A DNA stretch of 40,000 nt from Parvibaculales bacterium (GTDB taxonomy: Bacteria; Pseudomonadota; Alphaproteobacteria; RS24), in contig JBMHBY010000006.1 of the NCBI GenBank assembly GCA_049890195.1, positions 219,453 through 259,452 on the forward strand. The letters are read 5' to 3'. Below the pieces are notes generated by a model, which did no database searches, was not told where the DNA came from, and saw only the letters and a program-made list of their open reading frames with translations. Of the stretch, positions 2,725 to 25,084 are shown piece by piece (within the stretch, counting starts at the first letter, position 1; each line of letters starts with the position of its first letter). Made by a program: the position numbers and the translations under genes.

Positions 2725-4608
2725 ATGGATCAGCAAGCGGACATTTACGGCATTGAAAAATGGGGGACCGGCTTCGTCACAACCCTGCCCAACGGGAATT
2801 TGGGGCTGCGCCATCCCGGGCATCCTGACGGGGCCGCCGTCGACATGACCCAGATCCTCAGCCACCTGACCAATCGGGGCATCTCGGCGCCAATCCTGTT
2901 GCGGGTCAGCAATTTTCTGCAGCACCGCATTGAGCAGATCAACCTGGCTTTTCAAAACGCCATCGAACAACTCGGCTATCAGGGGCACTATCAGGGCGTA
3001 TTTCCGGTCAAGGTCAACCAGCAGGCGCAGGTGATCGAACGCATTGTTGATTTCGGTCGCCCGTTTGAGTTCGGATTGGAGGTCGGCTCCAAGGCGGAAT
3101 TGCTGATCGCCCTGTCGCAGGACCTCCCGGATGCGGCCGCCGTCGTCTGCAACGGGGTCAAGGATGATGAATTCCTGCGGCTTGCCCTGATGTCGCAACG
3201 CCTAGGCTTCAACACATTCATTGTCCTGGAAAGCCCGCGTGAGCTGGATATGGTGCTGGACCTGGCCGATACGCTTGGCGTGCGTCCCCAGCTTGGGGTC
3301 CGCATCAAGCTCACCAACCGGGTCAGCGGCAAGTGGTCCCAATCCAGCGGCGACCGCAGCACATTCGGCATGACCATTGCACAAATCATGGATGTGGTCT
3401 CGACATTGCGTGCGCGGGGCTACCTTGATTGTCTGGTGCTGCAACATTCGCATCTCGGCAGTCAGGTGCCCAACATTATTGAAATCCGTATGGCGACGCA
3501 GGAGGCCTGCCGATTTTTTGCCGAGCTGAACAAAGAGGGCGCACCACTCAAATTTCTTGATCTGGGCGGCGGTCTTGGCGTCGATTACACTGGTGAGCAG
3601 ACCGACAGCGCCAACTCAGCCAACTATACTTTGCAGGAATACTGCCTCAACATCATCGAGACGGTGACGTATGAAATGACCGAAAATGGTCTGCCGCACC
3701 CGGTCATCCTGACCGAAAGCGGCCGCGCCTGTGTCGCCCAATCCTCGATGTTGCTGTTTAATGTGCTTGAGGCCACCCACTATGACAGCCAGACCGCAGT
3801 TCCGCCTGAACCGGGGGACCATCCATTGCTGGAAAACATGTATGCGGTGGAGAAATACCTGACAGCGGAGCGGGTGCAGGAATGCTGGAATGATCTGCTG
3901 TTTTACCGCGATGAAATGCGGGCCCTGTTCCGGCGCAACCAGACCAGCCTGGCCATGACCGCCAAGGCGGAAAAACTCTACCTTTATTACATGGGCAAGA
4001 TCAAACCCCTGCTCAACGGTCTGGAGGATATCAATGATGATCTGCGTGATGCGCTCGACCGCGTATCCGACATCTATCATTGTAATTTTTCCCTGTTTCA
4101 AAGCCTGCCGGATGTCTGGGCGATTGACCAGATCCACCCGATTGCACCCATCAGCCGGCATGATGAAAAACCGACGCGCAATGTCATTTTGAGCGACATC
4201 ACCTGCGACAGTGACGGCAAAATCGACCGTTTTGTCCTCGGCAACGGGATCTCCAGAACCCTGCCGGTTCATGAAACAGATGATAAGGGGGATTATTACC
4301 TCTGTGTGTTTTTTATCGGCGCCTATCAGGAAACCCTTGGCGACCTGCACAATCTGTTCGGTGACACCAATGTCGTGACGATTGAGTTGGACGGGGACGG
4401 CGGCTTTGAACTGGTGCATGAATTGGAGGGCGACACGGTTGAGCAGGTTTTGAGTTATGTGGAATACGACCCGAAGCAGATGATTGATGATTTCAAGAAA
4501 ATCGCTGAAAAAGGGGTGAAACGCGGGCACATCACAGCGGCGGACCGGCGCGACGTCATCCGGGATTTCAAGGACAGCATTCAGGGCTACACTTATTATG
4601 AACCCTGA
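2725..4608 (+). CDS. speA: Biosynthetic arginine decarboxylase
   Basis: 627 aa. PLP-Lys motif FPVKVNQQ, GGGLGVDY, and C-terminal features typical of SpeA. Confidence 0.9.
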   Translation: MDQQADIYGIEKWGTGFVTTLPNGNLGLRHPGHPDGAAVDMTQILSHLTNRGISAPILLRVSNFLQHRIEQINLAFQNAIEQLGYQGHYQGVFPVKVNQQAQVIERIVDFGRPFEFGLEVGSKAELLIALSQDLPDAAAVVCNGVKDDEFLRLALMSQRLGFNTFIVLESPRELDMVLDLADTLGVRPQLGVRIKLTNRVSGKWSQSSGDRSTFGMTIAQIMDVVSTLRARGYLDCLVLQHSHLGSQVPNIIEIRMATQEACRFFAELNKEGAPLKFLDLGGGLGVDYTGEQTDSANSANYTLQEYCLNIIETVTYEMTENGLPHPVILTESGRACVAQSSMLLFNVLEATHYDSQTAVPPEPGDHPLLENMYAVEKYLTAERVQECWNDLLFYRDEMRALFRRNQTSLAMTAKAEKLYLYYMGKIKPLLNGLEDINDDLRDALDRVSDIYHCNFSLFQSLPDVWAIDQIHPIAPISRHDEKPTRNVILSDITCDSDGKIDRFVLGNGISRTLPVHETDDKGDYYLCVFFIGAYQETLGDLHNLFGDTNVVTIELDGDGGFELVHELEGDTVEQVLSYVEYDPKQMIDDFKKIAEKGVKRGHITAADRRDVIRDFKDSIQGYTYYEP

Positions 4609-13692: not shown

Positions 13693-14106
13693 CTATTGCC
13701 GACTCTGTGATCCGTCCCTGCGGCTGAAACCCGCCAGCACCAGACAGCCGGCAAAAATACCGAGGTTTTTGACAAAATTCTGGGTTTCATGGCGACCCTC
13801 CATGCCACTGAAGTTCCAGAAATCGTGCAAAGCGTAGTTAATCACCAGGATATACGCGGCACAGCCATACGCCGCGAGCCAGACCTGCCGGTTGGCTAGC
13901 AGCAATCCGCCCAACACCAGATTGGCGAGTCCGGCCAGTGCCAGCAACGGCGCGGTAAACGGCACATTATGGCGCAGCATTAAATCAATGTGGGTCTGCC
14001 AGTCGGCAAATTTCGCCAGCCCGGGCAGAACAAAATACAGCCCCAGCAGAATGCGGCCGAAGGTCAAAGACAATCTGTCCAGTTTTTCCAATGATGCATC
14101 CGACAT
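13693..14106 (-). CDS. DoxX family membrane protein
   Basis: 137 aa with four predicted TM segments. N-terminal LGRILLGLYFVLPGLAKF is typical of DoxX. Confidence 0.75.
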   Translation of the reverse strand: MSDASLEKLDRLSLTFGRILLGLYFVLPGLAKFADWQTHIDLMLRHNVPFTAPLLALAGLANLVLGGLLLANRQVWLAAYGCAAYILVINYALHDFWNFSGMEGRHETQNFVKNLGIFAGCLVLAGFSRRDGSQSRQ

Positions 14107-14169: not shown

Positions 14170-14329
14170 TTAATCTTTCCGGCACAGGTTGTGATACACG
14201 TTTGCATAATTGGCGGCCTGTTGCGACCAGAAACCCACCTTACTGGCAGGGTGCAACCGACAATTCGTTGTCTGCGGCCCAGGCAGGCGCGGCCAAAACA
14301 AATGCGATGATTGTTGAGGCACGGGTCAT
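14170..14329 (-). pseudogene. Internally deleted, frame-disrupted copy of the small secreted protein at 16264-16518
   Basis: The 5' part reads MTRASTIIAFVLAAPAWAADNELSVAPCQ then a stop. The 3' part, in another frame, reads GFWSQQAANYANVYHNLCRKD then a stop. It matches the nucleotide string cataattggcggcYtgttgcgaccagaaaccc at 16300-16330. Confidence 0.7.
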
Positions 14330-14362
14330 TGACAACCATCCATGTATCTCCCCTTTGAGGGC

Positions 14363-14782
14363 TTAAGACCCTGCATCAAAGCTGCCTTGTCTGCGACCAT
14401 TGAGGTGCCAGAACAAATAGGCGCATACTGCTAAATCATACCCAAAGCAAAGCAATGGATACCAATCGGGCACACCGGCATTGGCAACAAGCCTTTCGTG
14501 ATACAAATCGTAAAACGCGTGAAGTGCCCATAGCCCGATGACAACAAGCATGCCGGCTTTGACGCCGCTGCGAAAACAGATCAGGCCTGCAGCGAAATAA
14601 GGCAAACCATAGATGAACTCCCACATCAAGGCTTGGCTGTCACCCACGCTTAAGGCAAATAGCATGTAAACGGACGGCAGGAACACCATGAATATGGCGA
14701 ACCAGCGGACATCCAAGCGCTGCTTATGGAATATGGCTGCTGTGACAGCAAACAAAACCAGTCCGATGAAGAATTCAACCAT
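14363..14782 (-). CDS. Hypothetical integral membrane protein (about 4 TM)
   Basis: 139-aa ORF, hydrophobic throughout. No family recognised. Confidence 0.55.
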   Translation of the reverse strand: MVEFFIGLVLFAVTAAIFHKQRLDVRWFAIFMVFLPSVYMLFALSVGDSQALMWEFIYGLPYFAAGLICFRSGVKAGMLVVIGLWALHAFYDLYHERLVANAGVPDWYPLLCFGYDLAVCAYLFWHLNGRRQGSFDAGS

Positions 14783-14822
14783 GCGTGCCTCTCATGTGGT
14801 GTGCAGGTGAAGGAGCGATTGG

Positions 14823-14951
14823 TCACGAGAAGAAACGCAAACAGTATTCATAGATAACCATGACAAAAAACGGCCCCAGAAACCCCATTAGAACGGCAAT
14901 CCCGATTGTTAAAATCAAAAGTTTGATACTCTTACGTATTTCTTGGCTCAT
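14823..14951 (-). CDS. Possible small single-TM protein (42 aa), below the ORF-track size cut-off
   Basis: My translation: MSQEIRKSIKLLILTIGIAVLMGFLGPFFVMVIYEYCLRFFS. No clear RBS. Confidence 0.2.
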   Translation of the reverse strand: MSQEIRKSIKLLILTIGIAVLMGFLGPFFVMVIYEYCLRFFS

Positions 14952-15010
14952 GCTTGCTCAATCCATGCACTCTAACCCCCGGCTACTCAACCTGAACTTT
15001 GATGCCTGTT

Positions 15011-15100
15011 CCTCTTTGAAAGCCTATCAGCCCGAGTGCTTTGGTGTAAACCTGCGTTCAGGGGTGTTCACGATGCACGATAAACATGGAGTTTCAAGGT
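15011..15100 (+). repeat. Copy A of the promoter plus 5' DUF5681-like gene repeat (decayed, truncated)
   Basis: Aligns by eye with 24549-24650: cctctttgaaagcctatcag...ttcacgATGcacgataaaca. The -10 has decayed to TTTGGT and the reading frame stops after 9 codons. Confidence 0.7.
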
Positions 15101-15108
15101 AAGCATCA

Positions 15109-16116
15109 TTATTTTGCTGTGCACTTATCGCCTAGCAACATTTCCTTGAATGAGGTCAAACTTTCATCATCCAAATCGCGGCCTGCCCACCAAACCGCAT
15201 GCTCTTTTATGCCGCGCCGTTCATCAATGACCAGCCCCCACATGGGCGCAATCTGATTTGGGACCATGGAGTAACGCACATCCGTGACAAGATTTTTATC
15301 ACCATCAAACCCCAAATAATCCTGAGAAAACCAACGAAACCTCTCAATGTCTTTCCTCTGCTGACTGTTGCTATCCAAATCCGGTAAGTGATATTGATCG
15401 TCAAATATTTTAATGCTTTCGCCGGGGCACCAAGCGGGCGTGCGCCCAGCGCGAATGGCATCAACATAAAAACGATCTCCATGCTGATAAATGGACTTCC
15501 ACAGAATTAGGTTACCAAAAGAAGGCTTGAGCGTCATCCGCTCCGCACTGTGCCCTCTCGATTGGGCCAGTTCGAGCGCAGATGACAATGCCCTCTCATA
15601 CTGAACAAGCCCTAACGCCAGATAAGAGACAATCCACCCAACCGCAAAAAAACTAAATCGCCGCTTATTTGTTTTGACTGCCGCGCCTAAAAGAATGAGG
15701 GCGGGAATGGTAAGGAGCGGGTCAACAATGGATATATTATTCCAAGTTATGCGCTCATTGGAGAAGGGCCAAAGGAGAAGCGTGCCGTATGACGTGCAGG
15801 CATCAAGCAAACCATGGGTCGCATAGCCCAGAAAACTTGCCACATAGGTCGTTTTAAAACTCAAGGATTTCCTGACCAGTGGAAAAACAAGTGCAGAGAC
15901 GATTAACGCCCCAAAGGGAATAAAGAAGAGGGCATGAGTGAATTGTCTGTGGTACTCAAGAAACAAAATGGGGTCAGTCGATGACTGAATTAAAACGTCT
16001 AAATCGGGCGCCAACCCGGCGAGAAAGCCGACAAGACTTATCTTTGCAATATTGGTTTTGTTTGCCGCTGATTGCGCAAAAGCTGCGCCTACTGTTCCTT
16101 GAGATATGGGGTCCAT
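15109..16116 (-). CDS. Membrane-bound metal-dependent hydrolase, DUF457 (YdjM/YfhP-like) family
   Basis: 335 aa. N-terminal MDPISQGTVGAA, PDLDVLI and HRQFTHALFF motifs. Multi-TM N-terminal half. Confidence 0.7.
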   Translation of the reverse strand: MDPISQGTVGAAFAQSAANKTNIAKISLVGFLAGLAPDLDVLIQSSTDPILFLEYHRQFTHALFFIPFGALIVSALVFPLVRKSLSFKTTYVASFLGYATHGLLDACTSYGTLLLWPFSNERITWNNISIVDPLLTIPALILLGAAVKTNKRRFSFFAVGWIVSYLALGLVQYERALSSALELAQSRGHSAERMTLKPSFGNLILWKSIYQHGDRFYVDAIRAGRTPAWCPGESIKIFDDQYHLPDLDSNSQQRKDIERFRWFSQDYLGFDGDKNLVTDVRYSMVPNQIAPMWGLVIDERRGIKEHAVWWAGRDLDDESLTSFKEMLLGDKCTAK

Positions 16117-16163
16117 GTCAACTCAACAAATTCATTTTGATATCTCATCACAAAAAAACACCC

Positions 16164-16262
16164 ACACCACCCTTTGATAGCCTAACAGCAGAAGTGCAAT
16201 CATATACACCTGCGTCCAGGAGCATTCACGATGCGTGATAAACAAGGCAAGTTTGTGAAAGC
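16164..16262 (+). repeat. Copy B of the promoter plus 5' DUF5681-like gene repeat (truncated after about 10 codons)
   Basis: caccctttgatagcctaacag...ttcacgATGcgtgataaacaaggcaagtttgtgaaag. It ends directly against the stop of the minus-strand gene at 16264. Confidence 0.75.
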
Positions 16263-16263
16263 T

Positions 16264-16518
16264 CTAATCGTCTTTGCATAAGCTGTCATAGACGGTTGCA
16301 TAATTGGCGGCTTGTTGCGACCAGAAACCCGCTTTGGCGGCAGCCTTCTCAGCATCCGCCCCGCCTTGCCGGACAATCACCCATTGTTTTTCAGCGGATA
16401 CCAGGGCGCTTTGAATGCCATTAAAAATGTTCTTGCAGGCCTCGTCTGACAGCTTGTCGTCCGCAGCCCAGGCAGGTGAGGAAAACAGCAACACGATGAT
16501 GGTATAGATACGGGTCAT
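16264..16518 (-). CDS. Small secreted protein (84 aa), member of the shared-signal-peptide family
   Basis: Signal peptide MTRIYTIIVLLFSSPAWA followed by AADD. Two Cys in the mature part. The start overlaps the stop of the upstream 53-aa ORF (ATGA). Confidence 0.7.
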   Translation of the reverse strand: MTRIYTIIVLLFSSPAWAADDKLSDEACKNIFNGIQSALVSAEKQWVIVRQGGADAEKAAAKAGFWSQQAANYATVYDSLCKDD

Positions 16519-16676
16519 TTCTTGTCCTTTTGCTTTTTTCTTTCTGCTGCTGCAACCTCGCCCCTCAACGACCTTGCGCTCCCCTCATAAGGCTTGCTGT
16601 CGTCTCCCTGCATGAGTTCCAGAAGCCAATCCTTAGGCCGCTCATGCACCTTTTTCTTTTCATCCTCTTTGGTCAT
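16515..16676 (-). CDS. Conserved 53-aa Lys/Glu-rich protein, not in the ORF track (copy 1)
   Basis: My translation: MTKEDEKKKVHERPKDWLLELMQGDDSKPYEGSARSLRGEVAAAERKKQKDKK. RBS AGGAGCC lies upstream. A paralog at 23518-23679 has the substitution pattern expected of a protein-coding gene. Confidence 0.6.
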   Translation of the reverse strand: MTKEDEKKKVHERPKDWLLELMQGDDSKPYEGSARSLRGEVAAAERKKQKDKK

Positions 16677-16737
16677 AAAAGGCTCCTATTGCAGGCGTCG
16701 TAAACAAAAGCATGATAATGGTCAGTATGCGAGCCAT
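16660..16737 (-). pseudogene. Orphan signal-peptide remnant (MARILTIIMLLFTTPAIGA...) without a mature domain
   Basis: 25-codon ORF whose N-terminus matches the shared signal peptide. It runs into the conserved leader of the 53-aa gene. Confidence 0.45.
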
Positions 16738-16761
16738 TGATTTTTCCTAAACAAATAATCT

Positions 16762-16850
16762 CCACCACCCTTTGAAAGCCTAACAGTCAGAGTGCCATGA
16801 TGTAAACCTGAGTCCAGAGCGTTTACGATGCGCAATAGATAGGAAATATG
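16762..16850 (+). repeat. Copy C of the promoter plus 5' DUF5681-like gene repeat (decayed; ATG CGC AAT AGA TAG)
   Basis: caccctttgaaagcctaacagtcagagtgccatgatgtaaacctgagtccagagcgtttacgATG. Residual similarity (ggcaatcc) extends to about +45. Confidence 0.7.
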
Positions 16851-16911
16851 AAATTCTCTCCGGCAATCCACTTAAATTCAATGGTACCGGTCACATAAGA
16901 GGAATTGAAAG

Positions 16912-16963
16912 AAATGGCGCACCGGGGAAGATTCGAACTCCTGACCCCTTGATTCGTAGTCAA
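16912..16963 (-). repeat. Displaced 3' fragment of tRNA-Arg(ACG): att direct repeat (distal junction)
   Basis: 49 nt (16915-16963) are identical to 25008-25056 except for one position (T vs C). Three further flanking A residues are also shared. Confidence 0.9.
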
Positions 16964-17100
16964 AAGGCCCACCTCTTTTTAATTCCATGTATCCATAAGA
17001 AATACATTCAAATATGCGTAAAATTCATATTAATACAGTAGTTTATATACTTTTCTATTCCATTAACTTGCAAAGCAATGTTAGTGTAATTTCAGCCGAT

Positions 17101-17131
17101 TGCTGAGATTTTGCTGAGATTGTGCTGAGAC
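17101..17131 (+). promoter_or_regulatory. Three direct TGCTGAGA(T/C) repeats at 11-bp phasing: candidate integrase arm-type sites (int-proximal end)
   Basis: TGCTGAGAT at 17101 and 17112, TGCTGAGAC at 17123. The same motif pair occurs at 24924-24943. Confidence 0.5.
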
Positions 17132-17142
17132 AGAGTTAATAC

Positions 17143-17170
17143 CCCCCCACCTCAAATTTTGAATGGGGGG
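17143..17170. promoter_or_regulatory. GC-clamped hairpin (CCCCCCA...TGGGGGG with inner TCAAA-T-TTTGA) about 20 nt upstream of int
   Basis: Read directly. Function unknown; it could be an insulating terminator or a protein-binding site. Confidence 0.3.
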
Positions 17171-17190
17171 CAGTTTAGGCAAGTAAGGAA

Positions 17191-18330
17191 ATGAGTAAGT
17201 TAACCAATAGATTAGTAGTTGCTGCCAAGCCGCCCGAGCACAAACGGTACGAAATGCTCTGGGACAGCGAAGTAAAAGGGTTCTGCTGCCGGGTCAGCAA
17301 AAGCGGGACAAAAACTTTCCTTGTTGAAAGACGCATCAAGGCGTCTGGCAAAATCAAACAACTCACTATTGGCAGAGTTCCGGAGTGGAGTGCAGAGCAG
17401 GCCCGTGAGAGGGCCAAAGAGATACTGCGTGACTTTGACCAACCAGACTATCTTGAAAAAACGCTACAAAAACAACATGCATTGTCTCTCGAACAGGCTG
17501 TTGAAAGATATATTGCCTCGCACCTGTTTGATAAAAGCGCACAACACAGAAATAACACCGCTTCATATCTCAGAAGATTTATTGTCCCACAACTTAAGGA
17601 CATCAAGATAGAAAAGCTCAAAAGACAGCAGCTCATGCCGATTTTCGATAAAGCCAAGAGAGATATATCCTCCCAAAGCGCGAATGCGCTATGGCGTGCA
17701 ACTTCCGGCTTCTTGAGCTGGTGCCTCAGACAGGAACTGATAGAAAATCATCCACTTCAGGGCATCAAACCGCCTGCCAAGAATATCTCCAGGAATAGAG
17801 TCTTAACACTGGATGAACTGCAGGCAATCTGGAGCGCTTCTGAGCACCTCTCACCACTATGGAAAGGGTTTATCAGACTATTGATATTAACCGGTCAACG
17901 GCGTGAAGAGGTTGCAGGCATGTGCAAGGCTGAAATCAGTGATAACTGGTGGCGTATTCCGGCCCACAGAACCAAGAATGAGAGAGAGAACTTGGTGTTC
18001 CTGACACAGCTGGCAGTCAGTCAAATGCCAAAGAGTGAACACAACCTCATATTCACGACAACTGGCACAACCTCAGTCTCCGGCTTTAGCAAGCTGAAAA
18101 AGCGCTTGGACAGACTCTCAGGCGTTGAAGGGTGGCGTATGCATGATATCCGCAGGAGTTTTGTGACGCACCTGAATGAAATGCAACAGCCAGCACATAT
18201 CGTTGAGGCTTGTGTGAACCATATATCCGGTACGAGAGCAGGCGTTGCAGGGGTCTATAACCGCGCAGAATACAGAGAGCAACGGCAAGAGGCATTCACC
18301 CAATGGTCTGAGGTGTTTGAAAAACTATGA
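17191..18330 (+). CDS. int: Tyrosine recombinase/integrase, P4-like with N-terminal arm-binding (DUF4102-like) domain
   Basis: 379 aa. N-terminus KPPEHKRYEMLWDSEVKGFCCRVSKSGTKTFLV. Catalytic motifs LTGQRREEV, HDIRRSF and GVYNRAEY. Confidence 0.93.
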   Translation: MSKLTNRLVVAAKPPEHKRYEMLWDSEVKGFCCRVSKSGTKTFLVERRIKASGKIKQLTIGRVPEWSAEQARERAKEILRDFDQPDYLEKTLQKQHALSLEQAVERYIASHLFDKSAQHRNNTASYLRRFIVPQLKDIKIEKLKRQQLMPIFDKAKRDISSQSANALWRATSGFLSWCLRQELIENHPLQGIKPPAKNISRNRVLTLDELQAIWSASEHLSPLWKGFIRLLILTGQRREEVAGMCKAEISDNWWRIPAHRTKNERENLVFLTQLAVSQMPKSEHNLIFTTTGTTSVSGFSKLKKRLDRLSGVEGWRMHDIRRSFVTHLNEMQQPAHIVEACVNHISGTRAGVAGVYNRAEYREQRQEAFTQWSEVFEKL

Positions 18331-18716
18331 GTAAAATCACACGTGAGCAACTAGACATACAAGATGCTTTTGAAGCTGGCGATTTGAAGCCATTTTTTGA
18401 TGAGTACGTTCTAGCCAATAAAAAACCGCCCAAGAGAATGATTGAGAGATTACAGTGGGTTATGACAGAGAGGTCTTTAACACCTGTTTTGAAACAAAAA
18501 AGGAGCGGACCAGCAAAGAAATCCGATATACCACTCTCACTGAAAATTGAATTTTTCGAACGTAAAGCTGAGCTACAGAAGAATACCAGCGCCACTGAAG
18601 CAAAGCATCAAGCGGCCAAAGAGTTTGGAATAAATACCAGAAAAGCTGACAAATGGCTTGCAGATGCTCAATACATTCACAATAGGCTTTTACAGGACGG
18701 AAAAGAATTTAGCTAA
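18327..18716 (+). CDS. Hypothetical protein with possible C-terminal HTH, translationally coupled to int
   Basis: ATGA overlap with the int stop. The C-terminal AAKEFGINTRKADKWL resembles an HTH. No family recognised. Confidence 0.55.
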   Translation: MSKITREQLDIQDAFEAGDLKPFFDEYVLANKKPPKRMIERLQWVMTERSLTPVLKQKRSGPAKKSDIPLSLKIEFFERKAELQKNTSATEAKHQAAKEFGINTRKADKWLADAQYIHNRLLQDGKEFS

Positions 18717-18722
18717 TTATGT

Positions 18723-19097
18723 TTAATTACAGTCCATGCCACCAAAAATATTTGGCACACAGCTAATGCCGTTGCTGTAATCCTGTCCACCGAAGATGTT
18801 TTTTCTTGAACTCACGCCGTTGCTGTAATCCTGTCCACCAAAGATGTTGCTTCTTGAACTCACGCCATTGCTGTAATCCTGTCCGCCGAAGATGTTACTT
18901 CTTGAACTCACGCCATTACTGTAATCCTGTCCACCGAAGATGTTACTTCTGGAGCTCACGCCATTGTTGAAGTCGCCTCCACCAAAAATATTAGGGTTGT
19001 AACCAACTTGAGCATTAGCTGTGACGGGGATATTAAAAGCAATAATGCAGGCAGAGATTGATAGGCCAATCATTAAGTTTTTTGAAAAGTTCATCAT
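18723..19097 (-). CDS. Secreted Gly/Asn/Ser-rich protein with six 16-aa NIFGG(Q)DYSNGVSSRS repeats
   Basis: Signal peptide ending ANAQ. Four near-identical 48-bp units plus degenerate units at either end. Two Cys at the C-terminus. Confidence 0.7.
   Translation of the reverse strand: MMNFSKNLMIGLSISACIIAFNIPVTANAQVGYNPNIFGGGDFNNGVSSRSNIFGGQDYSNGVSSRSNIFGGQDYSNGVSSRSNIFGGQDYSNGVSSRKNIFGGQDYSNGISCVPNIFGGMDCN
18767..18958. repeat. Four tandem 48-bp near-identical units, in frame within the 18723-19097 CDS
   Basis: Units at 18767, 18815, 18863 and 18911 differ at only a few positions. Degenerate units flank them. Confidence 0.9.
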
Positions 19098-19259
19098 TAC
19101 ACTCCTTCAATTGTGCATATCTATGACTATAGGCTACTTAATTGCCTTGTCAAAACCAGCAAAATCACACCGCAAATATTTACCCCTAATTAGAGTCGGT
19201 GCCAGTAAACCGTAGTGAATCCAATATGACCTCATTGAAACTTTTCAAAGAGGCAAGTC

Positions 19260-19493
19260 ATGGAAAACTATCTAGACCGAAGAGACGCGGCACTTCATCT
19301 CACTAATGCTGGCATCAGCATGTCAAAATCAACCCTTGCAAGAATGGCTATGAAAGCCGAGGGACCCAAATACGTAATTATCCGCCATAAGGCATACTAC
19401 AAACCTGAATGGCTGGAAGAGTGGTTGAACAAATACCTACCCTCATCCTCTGCCCTCGAGCATATGGCACGTAAAGGGGTTGAAGATGTCTAA
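19260..19493 (+). CDS. Small HTH DNA-binding protein (AlpA/excisionase-like)
   Basis: 77 aa. RRDAALHLTNAGISMSKSTLARMA resembles the HTH_17/AlpA type. It sits upstream of the replication gene, as in P4-like elements. Confidence 0.55.
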   Translation: MENYLDRRDAALHLTNAGISMSKSTLARMAMKAEGPKYVIIRHKAYYKPEWLEEWLNKYLPSSSALEHMARKGVEDV

Positions 19494-19728
19494 AAAGCCT
19501 ACTCTAGTAGCTCTTTCTGAAGTAACTGACCTTACACCTTTACAAGCTATACGTGCGAACTGCATCGAGTGTTCTGGCAACTCTAGTAGAGATGCAGATA
19601 CCTGCCACCTAACAAATTGCAAGCTTCACTATTACCGGTTCGGGACTAATCCGAACCGGAAGGGGATTGGCGGACAAAAGACACATCGTCGCCAAACTGA
19701 GGTGCTTAACGATGCCCAGAAGAAATAA
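19480..19728 (+). CDS. Small Cys4 (CxxC-x10-C-x4-C) zinc-finger-like phage/island protein
   Basis: IRANCIECSGNSSRDADTCHLTNCKLHYYRFG. Overlaps both neighbouring genes. Confidence 0.55.
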   Translation: MKMSKKPTLVALSEVTDLTPLQAIRANCIECSGNSSRDADTCHLTNCKLHYYRFGTNPNRKGIGGQKTHRRQTEVLNDAQKK

Positions 19729-21556
19729 TGAGCTCGTTCAGCTAGCTCTGGAAATATCAAAAGATATTCCTGTATTTCCTTGCGCACGCAATAAGAAGCC
19801 TGTTTGCAAAGGTGGTTTCTATGACGCCACTCAGGATGCCGACAAAATCAAACAGCTTTTTGCAAATAAGGATGCTGCCCTAATCGGTATGCCGACGGGT
19901 ACAGCCTCAGGTATCTCGGTCATCGACATAGATGTAACCAATGGGAAACAGGGTGAAAATTGGAAGCTGGAAAACGCTGAAAAACTCGGAGTTACTTGTA
20001 TTGCTTCAACCCCATCTGGCGGATACCACTACTACTATCAACATCTCGATGGATTGCGAAACACGCAAGGCATTGATGGGTGCGTAGACATACGCGGTGA
20101 GGGCGGATATGTCATTCACGCAGCTTCACCAGGGTATGGCTGGCTCAAAAAAGATGAGGCACTGGCTCCGTTTCCGAAGCATTTCAGCACTACAAATCAA
20201 ATAATAGAGCACCCCAAAGGCAATCCGCCCACACTTAGCTTGGAACAAATGACCAAGCTACGAGACGATTTCAATGGAAATAACTGGAATAAAATTGTTT
20301 CAAAGATATGTTACAGCGCTTTTGAGCAAGGCTGGAGCAATCACCAATTCCGAGAGTTTATTGCACCAATTTGCAACTTAGGGGTAACAGACCCTGACCT
20401 CGACCCTATTGTTGACAGTGTTCGTAGGACACGGGGAACATTTGATAGCGGCGAAAAAACGCCACCCCCCTTTCCCGGCAAAAAACATCTACCACTGACC
20501 CCGATTGGCATTATCCAGTCTGAAAAGTTGAAGCCCAGAGAGCTGATACACGGGCTTGATTACATCGCTGGCACCATTTCTTTAACTGTTGCCGCTGGAG
20601 GTGTCGGCAAATCTATGGTTGTTATCCAGGAGGCCTGTGCAATAGCAAATAATGGCAACAAAGTAATGTTGCTGATGCTTGAGGACGATTTGAACGAAGT
20701 TAAGAGGCGAGTAAAAGCCTGTCTCACTCATCATGGCTATGACGAAGCTAAAATCGCTGAAAATCTTATCGTATTGAGCGAGGAAACGAGACTTACAATC
20801 GCCAGAGTTGAACATAACCATCCCGTGGCGGTTGATGGTCACTTAATCCGAGAGGCAGCAATGCAATTCGGTGCACGAGTGATTATAGCGGACCCTTTTG
20901 TTCAAACACATGAAATGAACGAGAACGACAATGGACAAATGAACTTTGTCGCTGACCAATTCCGTTCCATTGCAAAAGAACAGAATATCGCTGTTATGTT
21001 GGTCCACCACACGCGCAAAGGGTCAGAATACGGCACTCGTGGAGAGAATGCCCGGGGTGCATCGGCACTGAAAGATGCGGCAAGAAGCGTAAGAGAGCTT
21101 CGGCAACTGGGTGAAACTGAGGCAAGCGAGCTTAATATCGACGCTAGTTTTGCACATGAAATTATTTGCTTAGACCATACGAAAGCCAATTATACCAAGC
21201 GTGCAGAACTACGATATTTGAGAAAAATACCTGTTTTACTATCTGAGGCTTCGCAAAAGAGTCAAATCTCAGCCACAGTCGAGGCATATATTCCCGAAAC
21301 CTACGAGGACCTCGTCACAGACGAACATCGCAATGAAATCAGGCAAATGATTATCAAAGCGCGCAAAGATGAAAAGCCTTACGTCAAGAACCCGCGCAAT
21401 GGCTCGCGTAATATCTACAAAGAGGCACAAGCGAAGATGGGTTTGCCACTAGTTGCCATCAAACGCATGGTTTCAGAAATGTATGAAGGCGGTGTTTTGG
21501 AAAAGCGCAAGTATGGTCGCAGCGAAGCGGCGCTGGCAGTTGTGGGCATTGAGTAA
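19712..21556 (+). CDS. Replication protein: bifunctional primase-polymerase (Prim-Pol) N-terminal domain fused to a RepA-like AAA ATPase
   Basis: VIDIDV (DxD), GGYHYYY and DIRGEGGYVI motifs. Walker A AAGGVGKS and LVHHTRKG. I chose the ATG at 19712 (MPRRNNELV). Confidence 0.85.
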   Translation: MPRRNNELVQLALEISKDIPVFPCARNKKPVCKGGFYDATQDADKIKQLFANKDAALIGMPTGTASGISVIDIDVTNGKQGENWKLENAEKLGVTCIASTPSGGYHYYYQHLDGLRNTQGIDGCVDIRGEGGYVIHAASPGYGWLKKDEALAPFPKHFSTTNQIIEHPKGNPPTLSLEQMTKLRDDFNGNNWNKIVSKICYSAFEQGWSNHQFREFIAPICNLGVTDPDLDPIVDSVRRTRGTFDSGEKTPPPFPGKKHLPLTPIGIIQSEKLKPRELIHGLDYIAGTISLTVAAGGVGKSMVVIQEACAIANNGNKVMLLMLEDDLNEVKRRVKACLTHHGYDEAKIAENLIVLSEETRLTIARVEHNHPVAVDGHLIREAAMQFGARVIIADPFVQTHEMNENDNGQMNFVADQFRSIAKEQNIAVMLVHHTRKGSEYGTRGENARGASALKDAARSVRELRQLGETEASELNIDASFAHEIICLDHTKANYTKRAELRYLRKIPVLLSEASQKSQISATVEAYIPETYEDLVTDEHRNEIRQMIIKARKDEKPYVKNPRNGSRNIYKEAQAKMGLPLVAIKRMVSEMYEGGVLEKRKYGRSEAALAVVGIE

Positions 21557-21558
21557 CT

Positions 21559-21601
21559 ACAACAACAATAAAAACGCCTATAACAATGTTATTGTTGTTG
21601 T
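21559..21601. promoter_or_regulatory. 13-bp perfect-stem hairpin (ACAACAACAATAA-N17-TTATTGTTGTTGT) followed by a CAACAA-rich tract: terminator or candidate origin
   Basis: Read directly. It lies immediately 3' of the replication gene. A second 8-bp inverted repeat, AACGCCTA/TAGGCGTT, spans the same region. Confidence 0.35.
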
Positions 21602-21993
21602 TACCAACAACCAACAATCAACATCGTCTTTAGGCGTTGGCAATTGCTGAGGTCTTTGCTTGCTTATTGTCAATAATTAACAAGCCTCTGAAAGTTCATA
21701 ATCTTGGAGGACTGTGATTATCAAGACGATTGATGTAACGACCATTGTTTAGAAACATTTTCTTTGCCGAGAAATCTATCTCGAGGTTCTTGCTTTTCAC
21801 CCTTTTACCAGCGGCTTCGTACATGAAAAGCGGCTCCCAACAACCAATTACCCAAACATAAGCTTCATCGCCCTCGCAGGCTTAGCGGTGATTGCAGCCA
21901 AATACGGTGATTAAGAATTTTTTGCCTCACTAAGATAAGTGGGGTCAGGCAAAGGTGGTCTGCCGTCGTCTCCAATAGCGGCGTCAGACTTTC

Positions 21994-22179
21994 CTACTTC
22001 AGGACAAGGTGAATGAACAGCAATGCAAAAATTGAATTTATGCTGGCGGCAATAAAAACCTGCCTGCCCCCAGTGGCCTCTTCTTGCAATCCGAAAAGCC
22101 ACACAAGCAAAAAAGCCGTGCCATACCACGCAGCGAAACAGAGTATTAACGTTCCCCACCAAGTTAAATACCAAGACAT
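21994..22179 (-). CDS. Possible small 2-TM membrane protein (61 aa)
   Basis: MSWYLTWWGTLILCFAAWYGTAFLLVWLFG... preceded by GGAGAaacgt. This call conflicts with other ORF models in the same region. Confidence 0.35.
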   Translation of the reverse strand: MSWYLTWWGTLILCFAAWYGTAFLLVWLFGLQEEATGGRQVFIAASINSIFALLFIHLVLK

Positions 22180-22190
22180 ACGTTTCTCCA

Positions 22191-22355
22191 ATGACCAGAT
22201 ATGTATATAAAATACTAGGCGAATGGCCGCCAGAATACAAAATAAGCATCGCTGATGAAATCAACAAGCTAGGCAATGACGGCTGGGAACTGAACTGCGC
22301 TGCTTTTATTTCAAACGCATGCGCACGACTTCGATGGACGCGGTTGATGAGGTGA
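22191..22355 (+). CDS. Possible DUF4177-like small protein (54 aa), not in the ORF track
   Basis: My translation: MTRYVYKILGEWPPEYKISIADEINKLGNDGWELNCAAFISN... The YxYK and LGxxGWEL pattern is typical of DUF4177. No obvious RBS. Confidence 0.4.
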   Translation: MTRYVYKILGEWPPEYKISIADEINKLGNDGWELNCAAFISNACARLRWTRLMR

Positions 22356-22371
22356 TTGATTAACACTACTT

Positions 22372-22740
22372 CTAATTCAAATCAGAGCAGGTAAGGTTTT
22401 TCTGATAGCCAACTGACCCAGACAGATAATGAATAGTTATGGTTAAAGGACCAATCTGCGGCACCACCATAATGTGCTGAAGGTCACTCGCAGAATACAT
22501 TTTGACGTTATCTATATTCTGAATTTCTTGCCATTCGGAAGCTTTCTTGGCACCTCTAACTTTTACTGAGGCCTTATTTCCTAGAAACCTTACTGTATGA
22601 GACTTTAGATTTGTTGAAATTATTTCCCCAGTCTCAAATTTGGCCAAACGTTCTTCGGCGTCACAAATTAGCGTCTTATCGCCAAACGCCACCACAGGCG
22701 TCATAAACAGAAGCGTGAGGATGGTTAAGAAACGGGTCAT
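22372..22740 (-). CDS. Small secreted protein (122 aa), member of the shared-signal-peptide family
   Basis: The internal ATG at 22740 gives MTRFLTILTLLFMTPVVAFG. The mature part is unrelated to the other family members. Confidence 0.6.
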   Translation of the reverse strand: MTRFLTILTLLFMTPVVAFGDKTLICDAEERLAKFETGEIISTNLKSHTVRFLGNKASVKVRGAKKASEWQEIQNIDNVKMYSASDLQHIMVVPQIGPLTITIHYLSGSVGYQKNLTCSDLN

Positions 22741-22781
22741 TTTATGGACAATCGTGAGGTGAAATACAACTAGTAATCTAG

Positions 22782-23240
22782 TCATTGACTTAACACGGTT
22801 GAGCAATTTCTTTGTTGATACTCATTTTCAGCAAAAGCTTTCCAGTAGTTATTATCTTTGTCCAAATCCCGCACTGGGTCAAAACTTCTCTCAAAAATTT
22901 GTCCAAGCTGAAAATCGATTGGCTGCTTAGACAAAACTCCCCACCAGTAAAATGGTATTTTGTTAACTTGCTCTTGAGATAATTTATTCTCAAGCAACGC
23001 TTTGAGAAATACTCTCCCTTGCTCAATTGCCTTACTCATTGGCTCACCCAAAGCTTCTTTGTTTTCACCTGCATAATTAGCAAGATGAATGCACTCAAAT
23101 ATTACATGGATATTTCTGGGCGTTTCTAGGCTTATTTGCTGACTGTTTTTTGCACTTCTATCAGACGCAAAGCTAAAGATAATTATAAATAACAGACCGA
23201 AAACCGCAGTCATTGACGTAACAATTATCTTACTTGACAT
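22782..23240 (-). CDS. Hypothetical membrane-anchored or secreted protein (152 aa)
   Basis: ATG at 23240 preceded by GGAGGAG. N-terminal hydrophobic segment AVFGLLFIIIFSFA. No family recognised. Confidence 0.6.
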   Translation of the reverse strand: MSSKIIVTSMTAVFGLLFIIIFSFASDRSAKNSQQISLETPRNIHVIFECIHLANYAGENKEALGEPMSKAIEQGRVFLKALLENKLSQEQVNKIPFYWWGVLSKQPIDFQLGQIFERSFDPVRDLDKDNNYWKAFAENEYQQRNCSTVLSQ

Positions 23241-23521
23241 GCCCACCACTCCTCCGTTTCCTCCAAAGGTGCATTATTGTCGTTAGATTTTGCTTTCTTT
23301 AGCTGAATAATTTCTCTGTCAAACCTACAAACTTTTGAAACTACGGAATAAGCATGATTTCCGAGTATATCGGCAATAGAACCACTTGGACATGATTGAA
23401 CAGCTTTCTCAACCTCCAGGTAGCTCATCGAAGTATTTATAACAATAAGACAGGGGGTTTTCTGTGTAGCGAATGAAGGCGAAGCAAACAGAAGCGCAAT
23501 AATGGTGACTATGCGTGTCAT
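23225..23521 (-). CDS. Small secreted Cys-containing protein (98 aa), member of the shared-signal-peptide family
   Basis: Signal peptide MTRIVTIIALLFASPSFA. The start overlaps the stop of the 53-aa ORF (ATGA). Confidence 0.7.
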   Translation of the reverse strand: MTRIVTIIALLFASPSFATQKTPCLIVINTSMSYLEVEKAVQSCPSGSIADILGNHAYSVVSKVCRFDREIIQLKKAKSNDNNAPLEETEEWWACQVR

Positions 23522-23679
23522 CTCTTATCCTTTTTCTTTTGTCTTTCAGCCGCTGCAACTTCGCCCCTTAACGACCTTGCACTACCCTCATAGGGCTTGG
23601 TGTTGTCCCATTTCATAAGCTCCATTGCCCAATCTTTAGGCCGCTCGTGTGGCTTTTTCTTTTCATCCTCTTCGGTCAT
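23518..23679 (-). CDS. Conserved 53-aa Lys/Glu-rich protein, not in the ORF track (copy 2)
   Basis: My translation: MTEEDEKKKPHERPKDWAMELMKWDNTKPYEGSARSLRGEVAAAERQKKKDKR. Same length, RBS and stop-start overlap as copy 1. Confidence 0.6.
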   Translation of the reverse strand: MTEEDEKKKPHERPKDWAMELMKWDNTKPYEGSARSLRGEVAAAERQKKKDKR

Positions 23680-23706
23680 AAAAGGCTCCTATTGCAGGCG
23701 ACGTAA

Positions 23707-24522
23707 TCAGTAGCATGTTGTAGTCCCATACCCTCCGCCATATGAGGATGTGCAGGTAGTTGGCCTTAAATTCATAATTGTATTTGATAAGTTCGACATA
23801 CCCTGCATTTGTAGTTGCCGCGCTTGAGCCGCTTGTTGACGTTGATTAGCTTCTATTTCTGCGCCTGCTTTACCGAGCTTATTATTAACTTCATTCATTG
23901 AGATGGCATATTCGCCAAATGTTGTTTTACCCTGTGAGAGCTTGACCAGCGCTGCTAATTCCTCGGTAAGAGCAACATTCAAAACTCTTTGCGCTGAAGG
24001 CTCGAAATTCGTAATTCGAAGCGCCTCACATTCTTCAACTGCAGCCCCATAGATAGAAATTGCTTTTGACTCACGAGCAGATGGTTTATTTGCGTTCCCC
24101 AATTGGGCAAACGAGAATGTTTCACCTTCGGGAAAGAGTTTGACACTTAGTTTGTCTAAAAATTCTTCGCCAAAACCAGAAATAATTTGTTTTCTTGATT
24201 TGCTGTAACACTCTGCAGTTTGCTGAATGTCGAACTTTGGCACACACTTGAATTCAACACTAGACATCCCAGCACCTACTGCATTCAAGGCGCGCTCACG
24301 CTGATTTTGCTTAACAGCTATTTTTCCTAACTTCTCACAGTGAGCTTTTGCCTTTTCAATTGCTAAATTGCTAGCTGCGGATATACCTCCAGCTGCTGGT
24401 GCGGCTTTAGCTGAAACACTAAATGTGCCCTCACTTGAGACAATAACGTCACTCGTTGTAGTGCATGCAGCAATTAATGGCGCAATTAAAATAAGTGCAC
24501 CGAGACTGTGATTAAATTTCAT
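23707..24522 (-). CDS. Lipoprotein of unknown function (271 aa from the chosen start)
   Basis: MKFNHSLGALILIAPLIAAC contains a lipobox. Coiled-coil-like Q/A-rich region near the C-terminus. C-terminal CTSSYGGGYGTTTCY. Confidence 0.65.
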   Translation of the reverse strand: MKFNHSLGALILIAPLIAACTTTSDVIVSSEGTFSVSAKAAPAAGGISAASNLAIEKAKAHCEKLGKIAVKQNQRERALNAVGAGMSSVEFKCVPKFDIQQTAECYSKSRKQIISGFGEEFLDKLSVKLFPEGETFSFAQLGNANKPSARESKAISIYGAAVEECEALRITNFEPSAQRVLNVALTEELAALVKLSQGKTTFGEYAISMNEVNNKLGKAGAEIEANQRQQAAQARQLQMQGMSNLSNTIMNLRPTTCTSSYGGGYGTTTCY

Positions 24523-24555
24523 GACTAACTCTTTCAAATACATAGTTACTACCCT

Positions 24556-24585
24556 TTGAAAGCCTAACAGCCGAAGTGCTATAAT
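24556..24585 (+). promoter_or_regulatory. Sigma70-type promoter TTGAAA-N18-TATAAT of the DUF5681-like gene, within intact repeat copy D (24549-24650)
   Basis: -35 at 24556-24561 and -10 at 24580-24585. RBS CAGGAG precedes the ATG at 24613. Only this copy keeps a consensus -10. Confidence 0.6.
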
Positions 24586-24612
24586 GTAAACCTGAGTTCA
24601 GGAGCATTCACG

Positions 24613-24903
24613 ATGCGCGATAAACAAGGCAAATTTGTTAAGGGTCATTCTGGCAATCCGGCGGGGCGTCCAAAAGATGCTTATAAGGTCGCAGAGCTGG
24701 CAAGAACATACACCACAGAGGCCATTGAGACCCTGGCTGAGATAATGCGCCATGCTAAAGATGAACGTGTAAGGGGAACAGCGGCGCAAGCACTGCTGGA
24801 TAGAGGCTGGGGCAAGCCTAAAGTGGAGATAGTCAGTGAGAATTCAGACTATGTTGCCGCCCTGCAAGCCGTCCGCCATCTTATACAACAAAAAGGCAAT
24901 TAA
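24613..24903 (+). CDS. Phage-associated small protein with N-terminal GNPAGRPK motif (DUF5681-like)
   Basis: 96 aa: MRDKQGKFVKGHSGNPAGRPKDAYK... This motif is typical of DUF5681-type phage proteins. It is the last gene before the tRNA junction. Confidence 0.55.
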   Translation: MRDKQGKFVKGHSGNPAGRPKDAYKVAELARTYTTEAIETLAEIMRHAKDERVRGTAAQALLDRGWGKPKVEIVSENSDYVAALQAVRHLIQQKGN

Positions 24904-24943: not shown

Positions 24944-25007
24944 TATAAGCAACGTCAATGCATCATCGCGTTGAAAAACAATAACTAACTGAAATATAAT
25001 GAGAAAA

Positions 25008-25084
25008 TGGCGCACCGGGGAAGATTCGAACTCCCGACCCCTTGATTCGTAGTCAAGTACTCTATCCAGCTGAGCTACCGGTGC
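25008..25084 (-). tRNA. tRNA-Arg (anticodon ACG), 77 nt with encoded CCA
   Basis: Reverse complement: GCACCGGTAGCTCAGCTGGATAGAGTACTTGACTACGAATCAAGGGGTCGGGAGTTCGAATCTTCCCCGGTGCGCCA. It folds as a cloverleaf with anticodon loop CU-ACG-AA. Confidence 0.92.

Follow-up and report, generated by a model that had tools for sequence, protein, structure and literature searches.

Here we describe a short repeat, coding for a predicted Sec-type signal peptide, that stands in front of unrelated cargo proteins in Parvibaculales and related alphaproteobacteria. It was noticed in a 40,000-nt stretch of a Parvibaculales metagenome-assembled genome (MAG), hereafter the window (contig JBMHBY010000006.1 of assembly GCA_049890195.1, forward-strand positions 219,453 to 259,452), where an initial annotation had marked five minus-strand starts with near-identical leaders and had suggested that the leader-coding segment acts as a recombination handle for swapping mature domains. 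We find that the leader is conserved at the DNA level, that the phenomenon is lineage-wide and not local to the window, and that it belongs to the cargo part of integrase-primase elements that integrate at tRNA genes. From comparison of these loci, we consider it probable that cargo is exchanged from leader to leader, likely by homologous recombination, within the arrays of these elements.

A degenerate codon-level leader pattern, allowed up to three mismatches, matched exactly five sites in the 40 kb, the same five that had been annotated, against an expectation of 0.00 from 100 dinucleotide-preserving shuffles. Repeat analysis places them in one 38-nt family with 66–79% nucleotide identity. 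Together with a tentative sixth, the copies are as follows (aa, amino acids; ORF, open reading frame):

16465–16518 (−), leader copy MTRIYTIIVLLFSSPAWA of the 84-aa gene (ORF 16264–16518, cargo family 4)
23468–23521 (−), leader copy MTRIVTIIALLFASPSFA, 18 codons, of the 98-aa gene (ORF 23225–23521, cargo family 8)
22687–22740 (−), leader copy MTRFLTILTLLFMTPVVA of the 122-aa gene (22372–22740), starting at an internal ATG of ORF 22372–22806
14170–14329 (−), leader MTRASTIIAFVLAAPAWA and pseudogene of the 84-aa gene, a frameshifted, internally deleted paralogue
16660–16737 (−), orphan leader ORF MARILTIIMLLFTTPAIGA followed by FYDQRG and a stop, 25 codons with a complete signal peptide
16117–16165 (−), possible degraded 3′ half of a leader upstream of a YdjM gene, aligned with leader-YdjM junctions from five other loci (tentative)

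The leader is predicted to be a Sec-type signal peptide. Judged by a short positive n-region, a hydrophobic h-region of about ten residues and small residues at −3 and −1, all five copies retain the pattern, whose features as read for signal peptidase I (SPase I) are Arg3 (MTR), the hydrophobic segment ILTIIALLFA, proline at −4 and A-W-A at −3 to −1; a lipobox is found in none of the five. Scans for tRNA and Rfam RNAs gave no match at the leaders, their sole match being a tRNA-Arg gene. The window leaders differ from the consensus at 7–15 of 45 nt, against a median of 2 elsewhere. Other signal peptides of the window, those of a 278-aa lipoprotein (MKFNHSLGALILIAPLIAAC) and a 124-aa repeat protein, are unlike the common leader, so the likeness does not come from generic signal-peptide composition.

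Beyond the leader, the annotated lack of similarity holds. The mature parts of the 84-, 98- and 122-aa proteins have no mutual BLASTP match at E<100 and reach an hhalign probability of at most 0.3%, and by these comparisons the three intact domains are unrelated. The exception already marked, the copy at 14329, is a paralogue of the 84-aa gene, with which it shares 79 nt at 78% identity; it stops after 29 codons, its C-terminal part goes on in another frame to 14170, and it is found in the identical state in the Tara Oceans contig L001. AlphaFold single-sequence models of the 122-aa and 98-aa proteins were unusable (pLDDT, predicted local distance difference test, of 48 and 43). As for the YdjM gene, a badly decayed sixth leader may stand upstream of it.

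The conservation of the leader as DNA is seen most clearly in its synonymous codons. Information content shows a sharp rise at −2, remains high as far as +45, is weaker across the c-region and is gone after +53, which defines a core from −2 to +45 followed by a variable 9-nt c-region. Taking one leader copy per cargo family (47 families) against background codon frequencies, we found near-fixed codons at Thr2 (ACC, 87% versus 30% background), Thr6 (ACC, 94% versus 30%), Thr14 (ACG, 95% versus 19%), Ala9 (GCG, 98% versus 29%), Leu10 (CTT, 93% versus 26%), Leu11 (CTG, 66% versus 15%), Ile4 (ATA, 76% versus 22%), Ile7 (ATC, 79% versus 25%) and Ile8 (ATC, 86% versus 25%), with P values of 7e-14 to 1e-24 at the Thr, Leu and Ile positions listed and of 1.6e-2 to 1e-24 over all leader codons. 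The same amino acid thus takes a different near-fixed codon at different positions, and synonymous choice is position-specific. Third positions were free in the search pattern, so the fixed codons are not a product of the search; with the differing signal peptides of the window, they rule out generic composition, a simpler reading allowed for in the initial annotation. No significant hairpin or dyad was detected in the leader as DNA or RNA (z −1.2, +0.5 and −0.2), and on either strand it folds no better than shuffled sequence.

The leader is common outside the window. When one genome per species was scanned, the exact pattern was matched 19 times, in 17 contigs, against about one match expected by chance (calculated from 18 fixed bases, two H and three Y over 1.2e12 positions); 14 of these contigs come from MAGs of Parvibaculales, Rhodobiaceae, the PS1 clade or related alphaproteobacteria. 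Marine metagenomes added 84 further leader contigs, of which 24 hold two to four copies. The comparative loci are mostly short-read metagenome contigs; the same pattern had 0 matches in IMG/VR. The consensus reads MTRILTIIALLFATP-AWA, with MTRILTIIALLFATP nearly invariant and a variable ending (A-W-A, A-L-A or a lipobox). In total, 123 distinct leader copies head 47 cargo families that BLASTP keeps separate, and Pfam domains among them include TPR, SOUL and LIP alpha/beta-hydrolase (secretory lipase), which excludes the other simple reading raised at the outset, that all mature domains are divergent versions of one fold. A profile search of 1.84 billion representative proteins found the leader in 164 clusters at 50% identity, with matches lying within the first 20–45 residues; a padded 40-column leader alignment used as the profile query returned short proteins only. 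The leader-headed proteins fall into 64 BLASTP groups among 128 proteins.

The cargo is mostly 80–150 aa long with two, four or six cysteines, and few members have a Pfam match. Mature-part cysteines in proteins P0035 to P0166 number two in 48 proteins, four in 35 and six in 10, even counts that would fit periplasmic proteins with disulfide bonds. Trypsin_2, Adhesin_E and a YxzE-like bacteriocin are each matched by single members, and among 132 proteins there is one weak match to a Rap1a immunity protein (E 2e-4); PADLOC showed no meaningful enrichment in the same 132. A lipobox (L-[AS]-[GA]-C) follows the same core in 15 of the 132 cluster representatives. We also looked for a curated model of a special sorting signal: no NCBIfam model matched, and a DUF6732 match (E 0.0015) covers the signal region of one protein only.

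Closely related cargo genes follow different upstream sequences, and the change falls at the leader. A TPR cargo with an almost identical body is present in 17 copies in eight unrelated upstream contexts, five of them replicated in independent contigs. When all copies are counted, 21 families with 94 copies between them show 63 different contexts upstream, and many of these are again replicated in independent contigs. Homologues of the window's 98-aa gene in L099 and L057 (47% aa identity) follow different upstream contexts. Among close-orthologue pairs, upstream similarity is lost at −3 to 0 of the leader in 46 of 52, a count inflated by the de-duplication of copies on the leader plus 66 nt. 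On the downstream side, similarity continues through the leader of the next gene, stops near its nt 43–51 and gives way to a different cargo. Genes in these arrays are packed without a spacer, and the leader ATGA provides the stop of the upstream ORF in 31 of the 69 leader genes that follow an ORF. Such overlaps were seen in related loci L020 to L103 and, in the window, at 16515–16518 and 23518–23521. The leader ATGA and a conserved AA at −2 and −1 together terminate frames that come from upstream, which suggests that translation is coupled along the arrays.

The leader core is also decoupled from the gene behind it. In orthologue pairs with different upstream contexts, the c-region (nt 46–54) goes with the cargo, and the differences are spread across nt 4–45. 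Near-identical orthologues differ synonymously at 1.8% of codons in the body, and 13% of their leader codons differ; for distant orthologues, synonymous differences reach 57% in the body and 35% in the leader. Over the 45-nt core, leaders of different cargo on the same contig differ at 3.98 sites, those of different cargo on different contigs 5.72 (permutation p<0.0005), and those of the same cargo on different contigs 5.65, so the core follows the array and not the gene that it heads. Common core polymorphisms occur in all four gametes with r2 near 0, that is, in linkage equilibrium. The suggestion that the leader serves as a recombination handle is thereby strengthened, by DNA-level conservation, by breakpoints at the leader and by a core that tracks the array. 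A few cupredoxin-like and family-1 orthologues (L079 6191, L027 2289 and L065 13111) bear quite different signal peptides, which indicates that the leader can be gained by, or replaced on, an existing secreted protein.

In the window, the leaders lie within and behind an 8.1-kb element at a tRNA-Arg gene. The element and the older material behind it have the following parts besides the cargo:

25008–25084 (−), tRNA-Arg(ACG), integration target
16912–16963, 52-nt direct repeat of the tRNA-Arg 3′ half marking the ends of the 8.1-kb element, with the other copy at 25005–25056
17191–18330 (+), tyrosine integrase (Pfam Arm-DNA-bind_3 and Phage_integrase; PHROG 1, E 5.5e-51)
19667–21556 (+), Prim-Pol/AAA_25 replication protein
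24613–24903 (+), DUF5681 (small-terminase-like) gene, divergent from the cargo array (Pfam DUF5681, E 2e-8)
24534–24646, element-end repeat, first copy, with a strong sigma-70-like promoter (TTGAAA-18-TATAAT) and the first ~11 DUF5681 codons
16750–16911, element-end repeat, second copy, a decayed DUF5681 5′ remnant adjoining the partial tRNA
16152–16264, element-end repeat, third copy, abutting the stop of the 84-aa gene
14994–15106, element-end repeat, fourth and most diverged copy, abutting the stop of the YdjM gene

The ~100-nt element-end repeat is thus present four times, each copy followed by a set of cargo genes on the minus strand, and all five leaders lie within these sets, reading away from the tRNA. 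At the copy in 24534–24646, the cargo array begins ~70 nt away on the opposite strand. In contig L001, the tRNA is joined directly to position 16963 onward through a single repeat copy, at 99.4% identity and without the 8.1-kb segment, which points to a recent insertion of an integrative element. From this arrangement we read the window as one complete 8.1-kb element at tRNA-Arg with three older element ends stacked behind it. G+C content is 41–49% between 14 and 25 kb, versus 55–60% in the flanks. The five leader copies are best explained as having come largely by successive integrations at tRNA-Arg, and a swap within this genome is not demonstrable. Two truncated DUF5681 5′ remnants, at 15106/15109 and 16264, both end at about codon 11 and abut the preceding cargo stop; no tRNA fragment lies between them, where simple tandem integration at a tRNA should leave one.

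The DUF5681 protein matches PHROG 2538, terminase small subunit, at E 3e-7, a weak terS assignment. Scans for sigma-70 promoters and terminators brought out only the promoter in the DUF5681 direction, with no clear promoter in the cargo direction. A second sigma-70-like site, matching at 11 of 12 positions (TTGAAA-18-TATAAT), lies at 24971–25000 (+) between the end of the DUF5681 gene and the 3′ end of tRNA-Arg; it points into the tRNA gene, which is on the opposite strand.

The same setting recurs at related loci. DUF5681 is the most frequent conserved neighbour of leader arrays, being found in 24 loci, followed by YdjM in 11 and integrase and primase in 10 each; genes for tRNA-Val, -Arg, -Leu and -Thr adjoin the arrays, and many arrays have no recombinase gene nearby. 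The units of an array share one orientation and run away from the divergent DUF5681 gene. The simplest case, L078 (1–4400), is a ~4-kb minimal element between two full-length tRNA-Val(GAC) genes, in the order tRNA-Val, DUF5681, one leader-headed 322-aa cargo gene, primase, integrase and tRNA-Val. In L033, two tRNA-Val genes lie 3 kb apart. The carriers appear to be small integrase-primase elements of the kind of tycheposons or phage-inducible chromosomal islands (PICIs), or the remains of such elements.

The 122-aa gene gives a closer view of one cassette in two carriers. Its product has a single relative among 5.8e9 proteins, the 80%-identical P0035, which has the consensus leader and is located within an intact DUF5681-PrimPol-integrase element. 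At the nucleotide level, it matches L104 at 82.8% identity over window positions 22742–22335 only, that is, from two bases 5′ of the ATG to 37 bases beyond the stop, with unrelated genes flanking on both sides, the carrier of the L104 copy being an intact element of that type other than the one in the window. Some 60 nt lying 3′ of this gene share sequence with the terminal part of a weak DUF4177-like ORF on the other strand (22191–22355, +), recur as a short spacer before a leader in L020 (~3160–3243) and resemble the upstream region of L013; this segment may be another recurrent junction piece.

The remaining cargo of the window, in order from the tRNA side, is:

23707–24543 (−), the first cargo gene of the element, for a 278-aa lipoprotein with a lipobox signal peptide of its own
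23680–23706 (−), leader-tail remnant TTACGTCGCCTGCAATAGGAGCCTTTT directly 3′ of the stop of the 278-aa gene, with the same junction as in orphan positions 16680–16706
23518–23679 (−), paralogous copy, inside the 8.1-kb element, of the 53-aa gene (79% aa identity)
23225–23467 (−), mature part of the 98-aa protein, without a Pfam, NCBIfam or PHROG match
22782–23249 (−), 155-aa protein lacking a leader, with a transmembrane segment at its N-terminus, between two leader genes
22372–22686 (−), mature part of the 122-aa protein, with the one 80%-identical relative P0035
16515–16676 (−), gene for a 53-aa charged protein with no signal peptide, its stop overlapping a leader ATG (ATGA)
15109–16116 (−), YdjM inner-membrane protein gene, a recurrent cargo unit (Pfam YdjM, E 2.4e-33; 11 related loci)

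The two modules made of a 53-aa gene and a leader are 65–95% identical to each other over 16465–16715, and identity drops to 15–30% from 16464 downwards, exactly at the signal-peptide boundary (the last signal-peptide codon). The 53-aa protein is rich in lysine and glutamate, and these two paralogues are its only members among 5.8 billion proteins; as a guide to related loci it fails, being confined to this MAG lineage. Other members of family 4 have a lipobox c-region (ILAAC) and stand directly after the DUF5681 promoter; the 84-aa gene of the window has A-W-A instead and is preceded by the 53-aa gene. No toxin domain or immunity family was matched in the window's own cargo in Pfam, NCBIfam or PHROG.

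About a fifth of the complete leader ORFs are shorter than 40 codons. The orphan at 16660–16737 had been taken for a footprint of an exchange, and its counterparts elsewhere support this, since orphans recur before cargo that has its own start: YdjM is preceded by a leader ORF of 16–24 codons in 9 of 10 independent loci, with four kinds of upstream context; the 53-aa gene follows such an orphan; and another stands before a lipoprotein with its own signal peptide. In the window, the 3′ end of the orphan carries the ribosome-binding site and the start of the 53-aa gene. This junction is also preserved in the 8.1-kb element, as the 27-nt tail that follows the 278-aa gene, and so it is older than the split of the two modules. 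One short leader ORF, in L006, has a different origin, a microhomology deletion that fused the leader to the last 50 codons of a lipase gene.

How might such a repeat spread over so many genes? With every unit starting with the same ~47 nt, exchange could take place between the leaders of resident and incoming arrays, most likely through RecA-type homologous recombination or short-patch gene conversion. Each exchange would place a given leader before a new c-region, a new mature domain and new genes downstream, and the process would at the same time keep the leaders similar. If a cargo ORF had no start of its own, it would gain an ATG and an export signal; cargo that had one would leave the leader as a short orphan ORF. 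A rival reading is a site-specific cassette system: here the core would be an attachment site for the tyrosine integrase of the element or for another dedicated recombinase, and cassettes consisting of a c-region, a mature ORF and the next core would be excised and inserted as in integrons. Such a system would fit the sharp and constant repeat boundaries, the retention of the repeat before cargo that can do without it (YdjM, the 53-aa gene and a lipoprotein with its own signal) and the platform of a divergent DUF5681 gene with its promoter, which resembles an integrase-Pc-attI layout, as well as the exchange point in the three most informative orthologue pairs, which lies at the 3′ edge of the core (nt 40–46). 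We nonetheless judge homologous exchange more likely and the site-specific system unlikely, because the core has no significant hairpin or dyad and so is unlike attC, many arrays lack a recombinase gene nearby, integrases that target different tRNAs accompany an unchanged leader, and core polymorphisms are in linkage equilibrium; DUF5681, moreover, resembles a small terminase and not a recombinase.

Two further readings dispense with exchange at the leader. Selection might act on the peptide and the first 50 nt of the mRNA only, through efficient initiation, a common regulator or small-RNA target, or translational coupling at ATGA, with gene order varying through turnover of the tRNA-side island. 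The limits of conservation do match the functional peptide, from ATG to A-X-A, leaders that no longer serve as signal peptides decay, and the ATGA overlap is frequent (31/69); this reading leaves unexplained the homology breaks at the leader on both sides of the cargo, and it sits badly with cores that are no more alike between orthologous cargo than between unrelated cargo and more alike between array neighbours, with near-identical genes that differ sevenfold more in the leader than in the body, and with the lack of significant RNA structure in the leader, so that we hold it to be quite improbable. Less credible still is the idea that the window merely holds paralogues from repeated tRNA-Arg integration and that what looks like shuffling elsewhere arose when metagenomes were wrongly assembled over a short repeat. 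The 8.1-kb element is indeed recent and lies beside older element ends, and the comparative loci are mostly short-read assemblies. Against this, arrangements recur across independent assemblies and samples (five of the eight TPR contexts), the array of the window is 99.4–99.9% identical in Tara and Logan contigs, and the 122-aa cassette occurs in each of two distinct intact elements. The upstream context of L044 is also that of L040 and L073, and contigs with the AACY prefix (L029, L044 and L077), which we take to be Sanger-read Global Ocean Sampling (GOS) assemblies, carry the leader.

Several points weigh against homologous exchange between leaders. No recombination event was directly observed; we infer the recombination mechanism, as well as the actual export and cleavage of the products and the benefit of the cargo, from static assemblies, and in short-read metagenomes some junctions could have been misassembled across a 45-nt repeat. 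The near-zero linkage in the core could result from repeated mutation at the small number of synonymous sites where change is tolerated, and an exchange point at the core 3′ edge fits a fixed site better than random crossovers. The leaders of the window have diverged so far (7–15 of 45 nt; 66–79% identity) that homologous exchange among them would now be inefficient, and successive integrations alone can account for its five copies. Leaders before YdjM decay in some loci; the DNA is therefore not protected everywhere, and selection on the peptide, perhaps also on the initial 50 nt of the mRNA, certainly plays a part.

The arrays share with integrons their co-oriented, unrelated and mostly promoterless small ORFs, a recurring junction, a platform with a divergent gene and the occurrence of one cassette in many contexts. 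They differ in that the junction is translated, being the start codon and signal peptide of the next gene, that it has no attC-like hairpin and that the carrier is a tRNA-integrating element; no IntI-type integrase was found beside the arrays, and the window's sole recombinase, of P4 type, is encoded at the other extremity of the element. The rAID-1 orphan-immunity arrays of Bacteroidales lie on mobile DNA and have many small diverse genes, skewed GC and junction repeats 'reminiscent of integrons', and many of their products probably act in the cell envelope (10.1101/471110). Array logic and repeated junctions are common to both, whereas the rAID-1 repeats are intergenic, a XerD-like recombinase heads the array and the function is immunity; here the repeat lies within coding sequence, no such recombinase is present, and the 132 cargo proteins gave the one weak Rap1a match.

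A conserved signal-peptide coding region with differing mature parts is also known from the Vsp, Vpma and Vsa families of Mycoplasma, in which the 5′ untranslated and signal-peptide region is conserved, recombination swaps genes behind one expression site, and phase variation within a genome results from site-specific inversion by an adjacent tyrosine recombinase (Xer1, Mbr or HvsR) (PMC2268961). Their mature parts are related repeat proteins, whereas here the cargo is unrelated (TPR, SOUL, lipase and others), the repeats are direct and on one strand, the variation is between genomes, and no Xer-like gene was found adjacent to leader arrays. The Erp, Elp and Mlp lipoproteins of Borrelia cp32 plasmids and the conotoxin superfamilies likewise combine a conserved leader with divergent or unrelated mature regions, and recombination in the conserved 5′ part has been proposed for them; the resemblance is one of logic only, the organisms and carriers (cp32 plasmids; eukaryotic gene families) being different.

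Closest to the carrier itself are tycheposons and PICI-like elements, which have a tyrosine integrase, a primase, a terS-like gene, tRNA integration, partial tRNA copies and older material stacked behind, and whose PICI-like members were reported without extra cargo (10.1101/2020.12.28.424599). The gene set, the direct repeat of the tRNA 3′ end (16912–16963 and 25005–25056), the empty site in L001 and the accretion of older ends behind the tRNA all agree with that description; the difference is that a TerS-like gene occurs here together with cargo arrays, and cargo with a common leader is not part of the tycheposon description. In the part of the literature that was searched, we found no earlier description of a signal-peptide-coding repeat as a cassette junction.

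We tentatively raise the possibility, in our view less probable than not, of a cassette-capture system in which the junction itself codes for the signal peptide and more than 100 exported proteins are exchanged, and, in its strongest form, in which the core is a recombination site with a dedicated enzyme. If so, any ORF landing behind the junction would receive a start codon and go to the periplasm, and small satellite-like tRNA-integrating elements would put together, and trade, a pool of exported proteins throughout an abundant order of marine bacteria. An exported repertoire would then be built in a manner unlike that of integrons, one junction repeat supplying the homology for exchange as well as the start codon and export signal. 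In practice, the leader offers a one-line sequence handle on the flexible part of the periplasmic proteome in PS1/Parvibaculales, marine bacteria that are common but have been little studied; that proteome consists mostly of disulfide-type proteins of 80–150 aa without a known family. The leader ties this repertoire to tycheposon- and PICI-like elements, whose cargo organisation is an open question, and makes testable the idea that short translated repeats drive domain-level gene shuffling in free-living bacteria.

Two minor features of the window lie apart from the leaders. The 124-aa secreted protein (18723–19097, −), which the 8.1-kb element encodes between its integrase side and its replication genes, has its own signal peptide and five tandem 16-aa (48-nt) repeats, NIFGGQDYSNGVSSRS, for which only a weak match to an FG-repeat family was found. 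Near the start of a DoxX-family gene (13693–14106), the MAG and the Tara contig differ by an indel of ~32 nt (window 14029–14072 versus L001 2917–2928), which alters the predicted N-terminus of the product, 137 aa versus 124 aa.

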